From: Turneriella sp.
GTDB lineage: Bacteria > Spirochaetota > Leptospiria > Turneriellales > Turneriellaceae
Assembly (NCBI GenBank): GCA_965279515.1
Contig: CBDIID010000003.1
Span: forward strand, 4,544,001-4,608,000
DNA length: 64,000 nt
Direction of reading: 5' to 3'
In this document: positions 24,001-30,000 of the stretch, piece after piece
Numbering within the stretch: the stretch's first letter is position 1
Layout: every line of letters begins with the position of its first letter
Made by a program: the position numbers

Positions 24001-27000
24001 CGGAAGGGACTCCCGTAAGTTTCAGGGGTTTCCGCGCATTCATGATCCGCCGGATATCGGAAGACGGGAAGCACGCGTTAGGTACATTCAATTCTCGCAC
24101 GCAGAATTTTCTGAATATTCGATACAGAGAGAGTCAACTCTAAAATTGATCCCGGAACAGGAATGGATTCAAATTCAAAAACGGACGGTACCCGCGCGCT
24201 TTTGGTCGTAGCGGCTTTTGCCGTCATAGCGGCCTTTCTCCTCGGCCGCACCGAGCGGAACTTTGACGAAGGCGTATATATCCAGCAGGCGAAACTCATC
24301 AGCACCGGTAAATTTCCTTTCGTGGATTTTTTCCACCATCAGTTCCCGCTTTACATCTATATCCTCGGTGGCTGGATTTTTCTTGGGTTCGAAAGCTTCG
24401 AGGCATGCCGCCTGCTTTCGCTGCTCTTCGTTTGCGCGGCGGCCTGGATGCTGGCGGAGATCCCGCGGCTGAATGGCCGTCCGGGGGCGGGGCCTTGGAT
24501 CGCCGCGCTTTTTCTTTTTTCACCGCTTACCCGGTTTTCCCTGATGGCTATGCCGACAGGACTCATGCTGTTTCTGATCACCGCGGGCTTCTGGAGCTTT
24601 TTTCGCGGCGGACGGTCGCTCTGGATGTCGGCCTTTTTTTTCAGCGCCGCACTTTTTGCGAAGCCGGTCGTATTGCCCGCGCTTTTGGTCCCCCCGGTTT
24701 TGCTCATGGCACAGCGCCGCTGGCGGGACTTGTTACTTTTTTCTAGCGGCGGTTTTCTTTTTTGCTTGGTTCTTGGAGGGGCAGTGCTTGCGGCAAGCAG
24801 TGGCAGCTTCATACAATTGTTTGCCGCCCAGTCGTCGCGTTTTTCGGGCAAACATGTGTTTCAGGTGCTACGCACAATGCCGCTCTTCTCCGAGTATCTT
24901 AGCGCGTCTAGTATTACATCCATGCTTGAGTATAACATTATAGAGCATACTCGGAATTTTTTTTCGCCTTTTCCGTTCAACCCGGGATTGCTTTATACTG
25001 TATTGGGTATCGCCGGAGCGGTTAAGCTTGCCATAACAGAACCGCGAAGGCTGCTATTTCCCGGAATCTGGTTCCTCCTTACTTTAGTTTTTCTCGTCTT
25101 CTTGATGAACCCCTCGTTTGATCACTATCAGGTCCAGTATGTTGCGCCGCTGGTGCTACTGGCCGTCGAAGTTCTGCGACCCGATGAAGAGGGTCGATGG
25201 AAAATCATCTTATTCTTAGTGATTGCAGCTACAGTGGTCTCCGGGTCTTTCTGGAAGGTGATGTCGCCGGTGACCGTTGCTCATCTGCGTGAGCGTTTTA
25301 AACCCGGCGAAGTCGTTGTGGCGCTGAACCCCCTGATTCATGCAGTGGCCCGCACCAATCCGGTTTGTGACGTGATAGATCCAATTAACACGTACGGAGA
25401 TACAGCACTCCCGGGGATCAAGCGTACGCAGGATTGGGAAAAATTTCTGATATCCGACGCGCAGATTAAAGAATGCCTCAGGAATCATCCCGATTCCAAG
25501 GTTTATCTACACCCGGTTTTCCGCGCCTTTGTCCATAAAGAACTTGCGGAATTCGCCGTTACTTTGCCTGAATGGAGGTTAGTTTCAGAACCAGCAAATA
25601 TCAAAAAGTTCCCGTAATCCTGCTGGCATATTCCCCGGGAGAGGCAAGGGTTCTTAATAACTCAGTTTGCGGTTTGTGCGCATTGCATACTCCTCGAGTT
25701 CGTCCGGAGTTCCCAAATGCTCAAATGTTTCAGTAGGGAATGCAACTACAGAGCCCGTGCGTTTAATCGTGAAATTGTACACCGGAGAGATACTGAACAC
25801 TTTCGCCGCAAGGGCCGCTTTAGCATCGGTAACGAAATCTTTCCCGCTTCGCCACCAATAGGGTCCGGTAGTGGACCATGGACTAAACGGATCTTTTTCT
25901 CTCGTTTCCAAAACTTCGGTATCTCTTAATCTACAATAAGAATATTGCGGGTTCACAGCCCTCCGGATGGTTACGCCGCCCGAGGCGCGGCGGGAACGGA
26001 AAAAATCCAGCGCCCGCACCAGCTCGTCCGGGTCAATCAGGGCGTCGCAATCCGCGATCAGGATTTCATTTTCTTCGCTTATGCTTTGACTGCCAAAAAG
26101 CAGGGAAATTGTTTCTAGTGGACCGCGCGTATACGTCGCGAGGGGCAAGAATGAGATCTCACGGTTTTTTTGAATTTTCGCAAATTCTTTCTCGAATTCC
26201 GGCCGAATGATTACGAGATAACTGGCCCCCGGAGGGTATGAGTGAATAGCCCATTCGAAGAGCGTTTTTCCGTCCAGCCGTATGAACGGCTTATATGTTT
26301 GAATCCCCGCGTGCCTGAATCTTTCACCCGTTCCGCCGATCGGAAATATGACTGTCAGGGGATTATTCATCGACTATTACCTTATCCGACGCTCCGACTG
26401 ATGGAACTTTTACCACGATAACTTCACAATCGGTAAGAAAAACCGGTTTCGCGGCTTCTTTAGGTTCAAAAGTAAAAATCTGCTTCGCATGCAGCGTGAT
26501 GCCATTGACCATCATCGAACCGCTAAGTAAGAGATTTATTTCCATTGCGGTTTTTTGGTAATGATTGGGCCAGTCTTCCCCTTGCCGGTGGAACTTATAG
26601 CCTATTTCGAATGCTTCAGATCTAAAGACGCTAGGCTCAAAATTTCCAATAAAATAACCCAAGTGCATATCATCGAGTGAATAGATTTTCATTTTGAACT
26701 CTGTAGGGCATCGAGAAAAGCACGCGCCCCGGCTTCTATCCCGTTTTTATGGCCATGTATGGCCCCTCCGGCACTGATCATAATATCATTGCCGAATATT
26801 CTTCGCAATTTCCCCACGAGGCCCGGATGTGCGCCGCACGAGAAACTTGGAATAGTGTTTCTAAGTGCTTTGATTCTACTATGTAGAACAGCGGGGCTTT
26901 CATTGAGGTAACCGCCGAGCATCCCCACGTGAGAAAAATCGCACCCTATAAGGTTGATAATACGGCACAAGACATCAAATTGAATAGCGTTGGGGCCCGT

Positions 27001-30000
27001 GGTTAAGACTTTATCGCCCGATTTTTGAAAAAAGATTGCGATATTTACAAGCTTCCGGATCGCGTGAAAGGTGCCGAAGCCGCTCCAAATATTCATGTGT
27101 ACGGCTTTTATTCCCTGCTCTGCAGCCAGTTGCGCCTTTTCGATTGCTTCATTGCCGTCGCCGGTAATACACGGCGCGTAGATCATGCGGAATTCACCAA
27201 GCGCATCCCTAATGATCCGAATTCTTTCGGCAAATCTCGCGAAATTCTGGTCATTCAGGATCTCATCTTCTTTGATGAAGTCTGCTCCTCCCTTGGCCAT
27301 CTTTCGGCAAATTCCGGCAAACTCACTGGCGGCAAGACCTATTTTCGGTTTAACAATACCGCCTATGAGGGGCCGATCGTAGACCTGTAAGAAATCCCGA
27401 ATTCCCTGAATTCCGAACCGGGGGCCAGGAAACTGATGCTCGATAGCTGAGAGATCCAGGCCCACGAGTTTACATTCCTGGATATGATCTATATCCAGCT
27501 GCCCACCCATGATTACACTCAAAATATGACTAATGCCCGAGTTGCTGAATATTTCCGCAGGAAACCGTACCGTAATACGGTTTCCGCGGTATGAGCCTTG
27601 GGCAATAAAGGCGCCGAGTTTTTCATCCAATGGAGTACGAATATCCGGATTCCCGATAGTCTGGCCGATGCAAATATCACGGACTGCCTTGCGCATATTT
27701 TTTGCACGAACGCTGTAAGTGGCCGTAATAAATCGATCCATCAGGAGCTTTTTTGAAACTAATCAGATATCAACTTGTCAATAAGTTTCATCGGAGATTG
27801 TTCTTGACTCTCGACGGAATACAAATCAAGTTGCGTCAAAAAAATGTCAAAAGTTCGCCGACGCGTCAATACTTCTATTGTTATTCCGTGTTATAATGAA
27901 GAGGAGAATATTGAAAAAATGCTTGCTGGGTTTAGTGCAGCTTTGCGGGACGATTTTTTCGGCATAGAAATTATTTTTGTTAACAACGGATCCACAGACC
28001 GTACAGGTGAACTGTTGCAAAAAAAAATAGCTGACCATAAATTCGCGAAGGCTATTCACCTGGCGCACAATTTTGGTTACGGCCACGGCATATTAGCAGG
28101 TCTTAACAATGCGGATGGAAGTCTTGTGGGATACATGCACGGTGACATGCAGGTTCTTCCGGCATCAGTCATCGAAATCGCACGTTCACTATCATCGATC
28201 AAAATCAACGCACCATTGTTCTTTAAGGCGCGAAGATATGGTAGGAGTTTTTTTGAAGTTGTTTTTACTCTTTGTATGACTTTGTTTTGCTCGTTCTTAT
28301 TTAAATTCTGGTTAGCCGATATTAACGCTCAACCCACCTTTTTCAGAAAAAATCTCCTGGAAGATTTGACTGAGATTCCCGGGGATTTCTCCTTTGACCT
28401 TTTCTTATTCCTGATTGCAAAAAAAAGAGGCATTCAGTTGATCCGGAAGCCTGTTCGGGTACATAAAAGAATCGGAGGGATTTCCAGTTGGAATCATGGC
28501 ATCATTTCAAAGTTTGTATTATCATGGTCCTTTGTTAAGGCGGCCCTGAGTATCAGGAAAACTTTTCGGATTACAAGTAGTAAGCATCAGGTTCAAAAGA
28601 TATGAACGGCAAAACGCACATTATCGCCCATAGAGTTAATACGGCCCTTGAGCTTTCGCGGATTCCGCCCGAGTTTGGAGTTGAAATTGATCTCCGCGAT
28701 CGGGAACATGGAATCATCCTGCAACATGATCCCTATCTTGGAGGGGAATTACTCGAGGACTTTCTCACTCATTACCGGCATGGTACGCTGATCTTGAATG
28801 TCAAGAGCGAACGGGTTGAGTTTAAGGCCATTGAAATTTTGCAAAGACTTAAGATCGATGAGTATTTTTTCCTGGATTCGAGCTTTACAATGATCAACCA
28901 CTTTACGCGGCTGAATAACAAGAGATTTGCGCTCCGTTTTTCGGAATTTGAGAGCATTGAGACATGCCTGGCTATGGCTGGCAGGCTGGAATGGGTTTGG
29001 GTGGACAGCATTGAAAAACTACCGCTCAGCCCGGAGGTATTTGCGCTTCTTAAGAGCAATGGCTTTAGAGTATGCTTGGCTTCTCCTGAGCTTTTAGGCA
29101 GGCCGGGGGAAATTTTCCAATACCACGAGTTTCTCCGCAAGAACGGGATTTTACCGGATGCAGTCTGCACGAAACTGGGGAATGCAGCGTTATGGCAAAG
29201 TTGACGGGCTGATTCTACCTGCGGAGCCTATCCCAACGCCCGATCCATCAGTTCTTTCTGCTCCCGTTCGTGCACCTTGAGAAGGCCAGCTGCCGGTGAA
29301 GGGCTGGTCTTGCGCGCCACGCACTGGATCATATTCTGAAACCGGCCTTTCGCGAGGCGCTCGTCGAACCGGTCTTTGACATAGAACCAGGCGCCCATGT
29401 TCTTGGGTTCTTCCTGAACCCAGTACAGCTCTTTCAGGTTTTTAAATGTCTCGAGCATTATGCCGACCGTTTCATACTTAAAGGGATAGAGCTGCTCGAG
29501 GCGCAGAATGGCAATGTGTTCAATCTTGCGCGCCGCCCGTTCTTTGACAAGGTCGTAATAAACTTTGCCGCTGCAGATGATGGCGCGCGTGACTTTGTCG
29601 GGGGTGGGCGTGGCATCGTTGATGACTTCGCTGAATTTCCCTTCTGTAATATATTTTAGGTCGCTGATAGCTTCGGGATGCCTTAAGAGGCTCTTCGGCG
29701 TCAGAACGATCAGCGGCTTCTTCTGTTTACGCAGAGCCTGGCGCATCAGTACGTGAAAGATTTGCCCCGGCGTCGTCAGGTTGCAGACGATCATGTTTTC
29801 CTTGGCGCAGAGCTGCAGAAAACGTTCCATGCGGGCACTCGAGTGCTCGGGACCCTGGCCTTCATAGCCATGGGGTAACAGCAGCACGAGACCGCTCATG
29901 CGGTTCCATTTTACCTCGCCGCTCGACAGGAACTGATCGATGATAATCTGGGCACCGTTAGCAAAGTCGCCGAACTGTGCTTCCCAGATCGCCAGCGTCG

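Follow-up and report, generated by a model that had tools for sequence, protein, structure and literature searches.

A Form IV-like RuBisCO-like protein in a five-gene cassette of Turneriella sp. that may activate a keto-sugar for surface-glycan synthesis

What does a relative of RuBisCO do beside a nucleotidyltransferase in a surface-glycan island? The question is raised by the window, the whole stretch of 64,000 nucleotides of Turneriella sp. DNA analysed here, in which genes for a RuBisCO-like protein (RLP), a small cupin and a nucleotidyltransferase (NT) follow one another (Table 1). The three open reading frames form an operon with overlaps of 4 and 8 bp, as given in the first-pass annotation, and a divergent glycosyltransferase (GT2) gene starts 102 bp from the RLP gene. 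The RLP, there called welded to the NT, is its unfused neighbour here; a true RLP-NT fusion (P0002) and a PDE-RLP fragment (P0046) were seen elsewhere. The island is low in G+C against 0.53 for the main contig, but not uniformly so (0.43-0.54 in 2-kb windows). A phosphodiesterase (PDE) gene that had gone unlisted makes the locus, together with the divergent GT2, a five-gene unit. The metagenome locus L262 has the same divergent RLP/GT2 layout, and its GT2 matches that of the window at 66%; otherwise the latter is closest (36-37%) to GT2s encoded right behind SAR11-type PDE-NT-RLP-NT cassettes. A sigma-70 consensus was not found in the RLP/GT2 intergenic region, the promoter scan being at chance (3 found versus 6.0 expected). 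The Pfam scan gave no match for the multi-membrane protein, nor for the PDE when the window protein was searched alone. Among the 19 island proteins scanned there are GT2 and GT-C-like genes and no GtrA.

Table 1. Features of the RLP locus and of the island around it, in window positions
Feature	Position	Strand	Remarks
TMEM260-like GT-C	12275..13939		island context only
Membrane protein	14743..16008		island context only
Second GT2	16005..16829		island context only
PMT_2 (GT-C) membrane glycosyltransferase	17030..18634	+	domain scan; island context only
Multi-membrane protein, candidate GT-C acceptor transferase	24163..25617	+	~7 hydrophobic segments; cassette link putative
NT, NDP-sugar pyrophosphorylase of 4evw family	25654..26370	-	238 aa; RmlA/GMPP-like, invariant E158-K159
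Small cupin	26363..26692	-	109 aa; H-x-H/Q...E metal motif, invariant H44, E51
Form IV-like RLP	26689..27741	-	350 aa; compact complete fold
RLP/GT2 divergent intergenic region	27742..27843	.	102 bp
GT2, GtrB/DPM-synthase type	27844..28605	+	likely polyprenyl-phosphate sugar synthase
GDPD-type PDE	28602..29204	+	cassette core member; catalytic set H10/R11/E28/D30/H42/D43/K68 kept

The RLP matches PF00016 (E 3.6e-38) and, best among PDB entries, 2cwx (E 3.5e-38). Its predicted model (pLDDT 89), with 348 of 350 residues aligned structurally (Z 40.3, rmsd 2.2 A), has the N-terminal alpha/beta domain and the TIM barrel with K-x-D-E metal site that characterise the RuBisCO/RLP superfamily. Of the two starts considered earlier, that giving 350 aa was retained, because the 335-aa start would cut strand E4-13 and the invariant Y9. 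In its own numbering, the Mg/carbamate motif K157-E-D159-E160, K131/K133 and the P1 glycines are kept. The active site was found as first described, with K175, K177, K201, D203, E204 and H327 kept, H294 and R295 replaced by Q and K, and K334 lost, except that the conserved GG had been placed at the P2 phosphate site; G403/G404 are, as we take the numbering to be, part of P1, and P2 is the altered site. The view that the protein is not a carboxylase also holds, as E60, T65, N123, H294, R295 and K334 have become G26, N31, G80, Q239, K240 and Y278; judged by the residues of bona fide RuBisCO (Forms I-III), the RLP cannot be a normal carboxylase. Across 196 clade proteins the P1 and metal residues are present in 193-196, and the R295/H298 positions hold K/D, with S/A in about 24, a change that fits a monophosphate substrate.

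The clade is not an orphan, as had been supposed, and corresponds to the published 'Form IV-like' group, abundant in phages (Jaffe 2019). The contig JGI24006J15134_10000144 of the Jaffe IV-like list corresponds to locus L289; L289 and L002 have identical RLPs, and L002 falls in the clade of the window RLP (30 rows, SH 99, FastTree), a placement made through one listed contig matched, among 30/86 'IV-like' entries. The proteins of phages and Beckwithbacteria in that work (bioRxiv 10.1101/386292 = PMC6389311) belong to the same clade, the range of which is extended here to SAR11, Legionellaceae, Woesearchaeota and Elusimicrobia. In the available text, Jaffe et al. assign it no function; the preprint has no instance of 'nucleotidyl' or 'sugar', and the supplement none of 'nucleotidyl' (text, not figures). 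Unplaced GOS RLP groups are mentioned, with no sequences given, in the available part of PMC1821046. A full-text search, covering few subscription papers, found no literature that connects nucleotidyltransferases or glycans with this clade. The 50,697 deposited phage records contain no RLP relative, whilst 22 of them carry the NT. Regarding described RLP functions, the MtnW enolases (IV-YkrW), which are marked by a lysine at the N123 position, were rejected on scores of 127-162 bits against cut-offs of 409-514, on G80 and on the lack of mtn neighbours. OiaX and other four-carbon acid RLPs were rejected on 116 bits against 700, a different clade and the loss of H294/R295/K334. The Deep-Ykr MTRu-1P isomerase was rejected on the proxies L256 and L257, stand-ins for the Rhodospirillum rubrum protein typed from their mtnK-mtnA context, which have KDDH, E60 and N123 and sit in another clade. 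The plasmid RLP of L256, 5 kb from an NT cassette, was also discarded as support, being an unrelated mtnKA-linked RLP that occurs without the cassette as well (L257).

The NT is linked to the RLP at 78/80 viral, 37/39 genome and 68/80 metagenome loci and at 0/25 control loci of Form III/III-like RuBisCO, and the PDE is present at 65/80, 27/39 and 57/80 of the RLP loci, respectively; the loci are related by descent and these counts are not independent. The recurrence of the RLP-NT pair reported earlier is borne out by the genome loci of the clade, with the exception of Patescibacteria, whose matches in the genome scan are Form III-like and lack the NT; at L263 no NT lies within 11.5 kb of the RLP. 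The RLP very probably has a role in the pathway of the cassette. The NT itself, previously termed MobA-like, is closer to RmlA/GMPP in profile comparison, matching 4evw (E 2e-36), then GMPP/RmlA/GlmU (E 4e-10 to 1e-6) and IspD (E 8e-4). It carries the G-x-G-x-R loop and E-K motif of the RmlA/GMPP type (invariant G13, G15, R17, K27, E158 and K159), and the nearest solved relatives of its family are, by sequence, anomeric sugar-1-phosphate nucleotidyltransferases. The PDE matches the GDPD 1o1z (E 9e-14) and has H-R, E-x-D, H-D and K on a GDPD barrel. The cupin is an optional partner, found with RLP front ends as well as kinase/RpiB ones but rarely with the beta-PGM HAD. At L084 a GT2, a GtrA and an 8-TM protein, a complete three-component set, adjoin the cassette.

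Sequence comparison of loci indicates that the NT+PDE core takes interchangeable front ends in phages, SAR11, DPANN and others. These are the RLP; a beta-PGM-family HAD (best match TIGR02009); a PMM-like mutase (PF03332, E 2e-20); and a kinase+phosphatase+RpiB set, made of a KdsC-like phosphatase, a PfkB kinase and an NT-RpiB fusion, which appears in 0/286 RLP loci. By family, the substitutes of the RLP all move or remove phosphate. PDE-anchored loci (74 unique of 80) have the HAD only in 43 cases, the RLP only in 10, both in 0 and neither in 21; for the 56 unique NT-anchored loci with PDE, the RLP is alone in 39, the HAD alone in 15, with both and neither once each. The 80 HAD-anchored viral loci include the NT 77 times, the PDE 70 times and the RLP once. 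RLP-linked and HAD-linked NTs share up to 68-70% identity and are interleaved on the NT tree, where 113 labelled rows give seven parsimony changes, a figure without shuffle control from rapidly built, non-bootstrapped IQ-TREE and FastTree trees. SAR11 genomes with a HAD-NT fusion have the RLP in 0/5 cases, counted in incomplete genomes with no positive control. The exclusion is not strict: in the cupin-anchored set a phosphatase lies within ~14 kb at 12 of 39 RLP loci, seven being of beta-PGM type. Seven loci with APH kinase, EcbF-like HAD and NT lack the PDE, as expected if PDE and C2-kinase are alternatives. What the comparison establishes is an intact, non-carboxylating RLP with constant NT and PDE partners and mutually replacing front ends. 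In the slot where related cassettes carry phosphatases or phosphate-moving enzymes, the RLP probably delivers a keto-sugar phosphate ready for activation, a biosynthetic job undescribed for the RuBisCO family.

Our preferred reading, to which we give somewhat less than an even chance, is that the products of these five genes activate a keto-sugar for use in a surface glycan, the RLP taking the first step. With the same reserve, the RLP may supply the ketose-1-phosphate from which a ketofuranosyl donor is built, its probable source being a pentulose-5-phosphate whose carbonyl migrates. Its P1 site would bind a ketose monophosphate, which the Mg/carbamate centre would enolise, and the carbonyl would be walked along the chain from the pentulose-5-phosphate of central metabolism to pentulose-1-phosphate. 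The net result would be that of a phosphomutase, or of a kinase plus a phosphatase, and would free the C5-OH required for the pentulofuranose ring, the cupin probably setting ring form or stereochemistry. The NT would then form an NDP-1-ketose, from which the PDE would release NMP via a 1,2-cyclic phosphate to leave ketose-2-phosphate, and the NT, or a paralogue where two or three exist, would yield NDP-ketofuranose; in the window the single NT would have to act twice, which counts against the scheme. Finally, the GT2 would load the ketose on polyprenyl phosphate for a GT-C, a place that WavE/DUF7796-like proteins would take elsewhere. It also counts against the scheme that the putative link of the NT family to ketose-bearing glycans comes from known structures and untyped loci. 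It is a more doubtful step to regard Form IV-like RLPs in general as a 'phosphomutase by carbonyl migration' opening an undescribed route (ketose-1-P to NDP-1-ketose, 1,2-cyclic phosphate, ketose-2-P and NDP-ketose), the same NT+PDE logic, together with the versions that use a HAD or a kinase, then explaining fructose, xylulose and ribulose in bacterial, archaeal and phage glycans. The search for a PDE-type cassette with a glycan of known structure gave no E. coli match for L147 or L243 DNA, and the short PDE had no match in plasmids. Of the nucleotide-activation pathway first proposed, enolisation-type ketose phosphate chemistry, NT linkage and glycan context are retained, a polyol phosphate fits less well, and PDE and GT2 are added.

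An unlikely variant keeps this pathway and makes the RLP a C3-epimerase or single-shift isomerase (e.g. RuBP-to-XuBP or Ru1P-to-Xu1P type, the misprotonation chemistry of RuBisCO) that chooses the ketose, a host phosphatase giving the monophosphate. Generic HAD phosphatases do exist elsewhere in the genome, H327 and the lysine at the R295 position are kept in 166-170 of the 196 clade proteins, and RLP and HAD both lie within 1.2 kb at 9/327 unique NT domains, some being a HAD-NT fusion with cupin and RLP (e.g. L001, L071, L523). However, a dedicated phosphatase would have to vanish nearly whenever the RLP arrives (co-occurrence 0/10, 1/40 and 1/80), and D at H298 together with the S/A/Q subgroup disfavours a second phosphate. 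Less probable is a CDP-ketose or polyol phosphate, arising by primary-phosphate activation and transferred as phosphodiester like CDP-glucitol or CDP-ribitol, with the PDE only recycling or editing. A LicD gene is divergent from RLP+NT at 4/4 Legionella/Tatlockia loci, all without PDE, IspD is a weak match of the only NT in the window, and CDP-6-fructose is a precedent in the available text of PMC10918830. A glycosyl donor is nevertheless better than a polyol phosphate, because the NT profile is far nearer to anomeric pyrophosphorylases and no reductase is found among the recurrent neighbours of the core; moreover, the back ends resemble glycosyltransferases (GT2/GtrA/GT-C, WavE, DUF7796) and the PDE is core in 45/45 long HAD and 21/22 long metagenome RLP loci.

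Slightly less probable again is carbon-skeleton chemistry (OiaX-like decarboxylation/transcarboxylation, oxygenation or phosphate elimination) leading to a branched or shortened sugar. Other RLPs, OiaX with its skeleton-changing mechanism among them, as the family name indicates, do such reactions, H215, Y278 and C302 are new invariant residues of the clade, and an NT-RibB fusion shows that the NT family can follow skeleton-changing Ru5P enzymes; yet simple phosphatases and mutases replace the RLP beside closely similar NTs, K334, H294, E60 and N123 are gone, and no dehydrogenase or transporter travels with the RLP. A role of the RLP in methionine salvage, catabolism or CO2 fixation, or as an island passenger, is very improbable and largely refuted by context. 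Form III and MtnW are the curated families that score highest, but both stay far under their cut-offs; its clade is separate with a near-invariant fingerprint and an NT fusion, and the clade loci lack the mtn, AMP-pathway and transporter neighbours, while Form III loci show theirs.

The preferred reading makes the RLP, as a well-supported hypothesis from sequence and context, the first RuBisCO-family enzyme in glycan biosynthesis. If true, the RuBisCO fold would have an anabolic, glycan-building use, and a large phage-borne clade whose function was left open by its describers gains a testable job. The enzymes concerned are all small, soluble proteins. The cassette also bears on the open question of the origin of NDP-xylulose in E. 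coli O95/O97, the precursor genes for which were not found according to the available part of a 2019 review (PMC7685785); a literature search on CDP/CMP/NDP-fructose and CDP-xylulose gave only a C6-linked case.

Among known systems, the R. rubrum Deep-Ykr RLP isomerises MTRu-1P to MTXu-5P (available text of PMC4958253); it shares the short RLP fold and a cupin in the pathway, and the chemistry proposed here runs in the reverse direction. It differs in clade, in residues (judged on L256/L257), in its catabolic/salvage role and in having no NT or PDE, and is a precedent by analogy only. The C. jejuni HS:5 CDP-6-fructose/CDP-glucitol pathway (PMC10918830, as available) likewise serves a surface glycan through a nucleotidyltransferase whose substrate is a ketose phosphate, but it needs a reductase and is without RLP or PDE. 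With three-component GtrB/GtrA/GT-C glycosylation (PMC11127046), the available text of which does not mention ketoses or xylulose, the island shares a GtrB-type GT2 and GT-C-like membrane proteins, whereas it lacks a detected GtrA and its donor would be a ketose. The enterobacterial capsule/O-antigen cassettes of kinase, EcbF/BcbF-type HAD and NT (L149, L251-L254) rely on an APH kinase with a short HAD instead of RLP and PDE, and their NTs form a separate branch; they have in common the same 4evw-family NT and the WavE/DUF7796 back ends.

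The RuBisCO-like protein (RLP), cupin and nucleotidyltransferase (NT) are three minus-strand reading frames with overlaps of 4 and 8 bp, as the first-pass annotation gave them. The divergent glycosyltransferase (GT2) it listed also holds, and to this gene set we add one that it did not mention, encoding a putative phosphodiesterase (PDE). A Pfam search with the window PDE alone gave no match; the profile of its relatives matches the GDPD phosphodiesterase 1o1z (E 9e-14), and the catalytic H/R/E/D/H/K set is conserved.

Genes of the RLP cassette in window positions
Gene	Position	Strand or layout	Basis
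RLP, 350 aa	26689-27741	-	ORF
Cupin	26363-26692	-	ORF
NT	25654-26370	-	ORF
GT2	27844-28605	divergent from RLP, 102 bp off	ORF
PDE, 200 aa	28602-29204	4-bp overlap with GT2	relatives' profile matches GDPD phosphodiesterases

The whole genome contains a single RLP and a single cupin and PDE of the cassette type. Because the RLP has no match among 13 same-genus genomes and only weak ones (E 1e-32 or weaker) in four of 40 relatives, we regard the cassette as an acquired island; its genes range from 0.41 to 0.50 in G+C content, with the main contig at 0.53. The divergent layout is retained in a metagenome locus (L262) whose RLP is 87% identical to that of the window. The cassette is real, conserved and mobile. 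Nearby, positions 18734-24100 carry two radical-SAM, two UbiA-family and two Cupin_8/JmjC genes. Both UbiA-family genes weakly match decaprenyl-phosphate phosphoribosyltransferase, and the second Cupin_8/JmjC gene seems split into overlapping ORFs (23642-24100 and 23304-23768).

Phylogenetic analysis (FastTree, 137 rows) placed the window RLP in a 30-row clade (SH 99) separate from Form I, III, III-like, OiaX, four-carbon-acid and mtnKA-linked RLPs. The available text of Jaffe et al. (bioRxiv 10.1101/386292 = PMC6389311) describes a 'Form IV-like' clade of phages and Beckwithbacteria of unclear function, and contig JGI24006J15134_10000144 appears among 30 of the 86 'IV-like' entries in its supplement (PMC6389311). 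That contig is our locus L289, whose RLP is identical to L002 of the window's clade, and the window RLP is therefore a member of the Form IV-like clade. The clade is thus already in print, with no function given; no paper on the cassette was found in the literature searched, which excluded subscription literature and the context figure of Jaffe et al. Clade members occur in 221 viral stretches, in at least 461 metagenome stretches and in 39 of 64 genome loci, the remainder of which (25) are Form III-type; 50,697 deposited phage records contained none. Outside the clade, a TIR domain is fused to an unrelated RLP (P0081) and Form III RuBisCO to an R15P-isomerase-like domain (P0036, P0042). Two rhizobial plasmids (L256:5686-11110, L257:1356-6780) carry the operon mtnK-mtnA-split transketolase-short RLP, likely a thio- or deoxy-ribose catabolic variant.

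The predicted RLP structure (pLDDT 89) aligns with RuBisCOs over 348 of 350 residues (Z 40, rmsd 2.2 A) and covers the best match from about residue 25 to 416, lacking only the N-terminal tail and C-terminal helices of that fold; on this model the RLP is intact. Between the two start codons considered earlier, the 350-aa start is right, since the 335-aa start loses strand 4-13 and the invariant Y9. With a Form I sequence (L260) as the bridge to spinach RuBisCO numbering, the RLP keeps K175, K177, K201, D203, E204, H327, S379, G381, G403 and G404, while E60 (G), T65 (N), N123 (G), T173 (I), H294 (Q), R295 (K), H298 (D), K334 (Y) and G380 (C) are replaced. Most mapped positions are present in 192-196 of 196 unique clade proteins, as are the new H215, N217, D83 and R35; variation is found at the P2 positions (K/S/R at R295, D/A/E at H298, H/Q at H327). 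The glycine pair had been read as a retained P2 site; as G403/G404 form part of the P1 phosphate site, the reverse applies, with P1 kept and P2 changed. About 24 of the 196 proteins jointly change Q/K/D/H to H/S/A/Q at alignment positions 81/240/243/271. Every basic P2-site residue is gone from this subgroup, which possibly has another substrate or stereochemistry.

The NT accompanies the RLP in 78/80 viral, 37/39 genome and 68/80 metagenome loci (many of the latter being short contigs) and in none of the 25 Form III-type loci. The corresponding counts are 65/80, 27/39 and 57/80 for the PDE, 63/80, 8/39 and 38/80 for the cupin, and 59/80, 17/39 and 44/80 for WavE/DUF7796-like genes. The RLP also occurs fused to the NT, in a protein of 667 aa, and to the PDE, in a fragment. 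The NT, previously called MobA-like, is rather an NDP-sugar pyrophosphorylase, because the solved structure nearest to its family is 4evw, with GMPP, RmlA and GlmU next. After L262, the window GT2 most resembles the GT2s that lie immediately behind SAR11-type cassettes (36-37%). In five viral contigs (L017, L041, L049, L051, L053), genes for an APH-type kinase, a DHQS-like cyclase and an SDR come next after NT-cupin-RLP. In four Legionellaceae (L083, L086, L087, L088) a LicD phosphotransferase is divergent from RLP and NT, with neither PDE nor cupin.

The NT and PDE core also occurs without the RLP. The 80 viral loci anchored on a beta-PGM-family HAD contain NT in 77, PDE in 70, WavE/DUF7796-like genes in 62, cupin in four and RLP in one. 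With the PDE as anchor, which is neutral between RLP and HAD, the 74 unique loci of 80 comprised 43 with HAD only, 10 with RLP only, none with both and 21 with neither (Fisher p 6e-5, overstated since the loci are related). Of these 21, 15 have a cupin; a closer look at eight showed a KdsC-like phosphatase together with a PfkB kinase in each, often alongside an NT-RpiB fusion. A PMM-like mutase is found in L206 and L578, and elsewhere a HAD is fused to the NT C-terminus. Among 56 unique NT-anchored loci with PDE, 39 have RLP only, 15 HAD only, one both and one neither. In a pool of 184 unique NT+PDE loci, each 10 kb or longer, 178 had exactly one such front end and six had two; that none had zero is due in part to selection. 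NTs linked to an RLP and those linked to a HAD share up to 70% identity, about the value for the SAR11 or phage pairing of L002-type RLP with L385/L413-type HAD, and they are interleaved on the NT tree, with seven parsimony changes between linkages among 113 labelled rows. Contrary to strict exclusivity, both RLP and HAD lie within 1.2 kb of nine of 327 unique NT domains, and 12 of 39 RLP loci in the cupin-anchored set contain some phosphatase, often as a second cassette.

Individual loci illustrate this variety. The cultured phage Bellamy (L587:3288-6715) carries the RLP-free variant: it has a KdsC-like phosphatase, PfkB kinase, NT-RpiB fusion, cupin and DUF7796-like gene, as do L433, L441, L478 and L479. 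Synechococcus phage S-SKS1 (L586:4501-5928) has a fusion of the NT with RibB, a DHBP synthase that acts on ribulose-5-phosphate; next to this fusion are an APH kinase, a short HAD and a transaldolase. A Rhizobium plasmid (L146:139-8487) has a PDE-HAD-NT-NT-NT cassette directly after erythritol-catabolism-like genes.

The cassette very probably makes an activated sugar for a glycan. The RLP substitutes act by mutase, by phosphatase, or by isomerase, kinase and phosphatase, and all put phosphate on one sugar end and clear the other; the RpiB variant points to aldose/ketose phosphates. With the RuBisCO enolisation centre and P1 kept and P2 degraded, the RLP would move the carbonyl rather than the phosphate, to the same net end. 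The Rhodospirillum rubrum Deep-Ykr RLP moves a carbonyl between MTRu-1P and MTXu-5P, as PMC4958253 describes. We therefore propose a step from pentulose-5-P to pentulose-1-P; the chance that the RLP supplies a ketose-1-phosphate by carbonyl migration is a little short of even. NT and PDE acting through a 1,2-cyclic phosphate might be the alternative to a C2 kinase, if the APH kinase phosphorylates C2. This would fit the two or three NT paralogues of many loci; it is the weakest step because the window has a single NT, and the full cyclic-phosphate route is doubtful. The PDE-free Legionellaceae loci with LicD hint at direct use of the RLP product by the NT, and they keep alive the reading that the end product is a CDP-linked ketose or polyol phosphate.

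Seven loci with APH kinase, EcbF-like HAD and NT have no PDE, and among them are E. coli capsule and O-antigen loci, one being an ST69 kps locus. In the E. coli O78 O-antigen cluster (L254:3667-9597), WavE, HAD, kinase and NT occur together. The published O78 repeat is not known to contain a ketose; an acid-labile residue may have escaped detection. The K52 capsule contains fructose. K52 is the commonest K locus in the ST69 lineage, according to PMC13171598.

Regarding known systems, the active-site fingerprint of Deep-Ykr-type proxies differs from that of the window RLP. The cassette of L084 is flanked by a GT2, a GtrA flippase and an 8-TM protein, recalling three-component glycosylation as outlined in PMC11127046.
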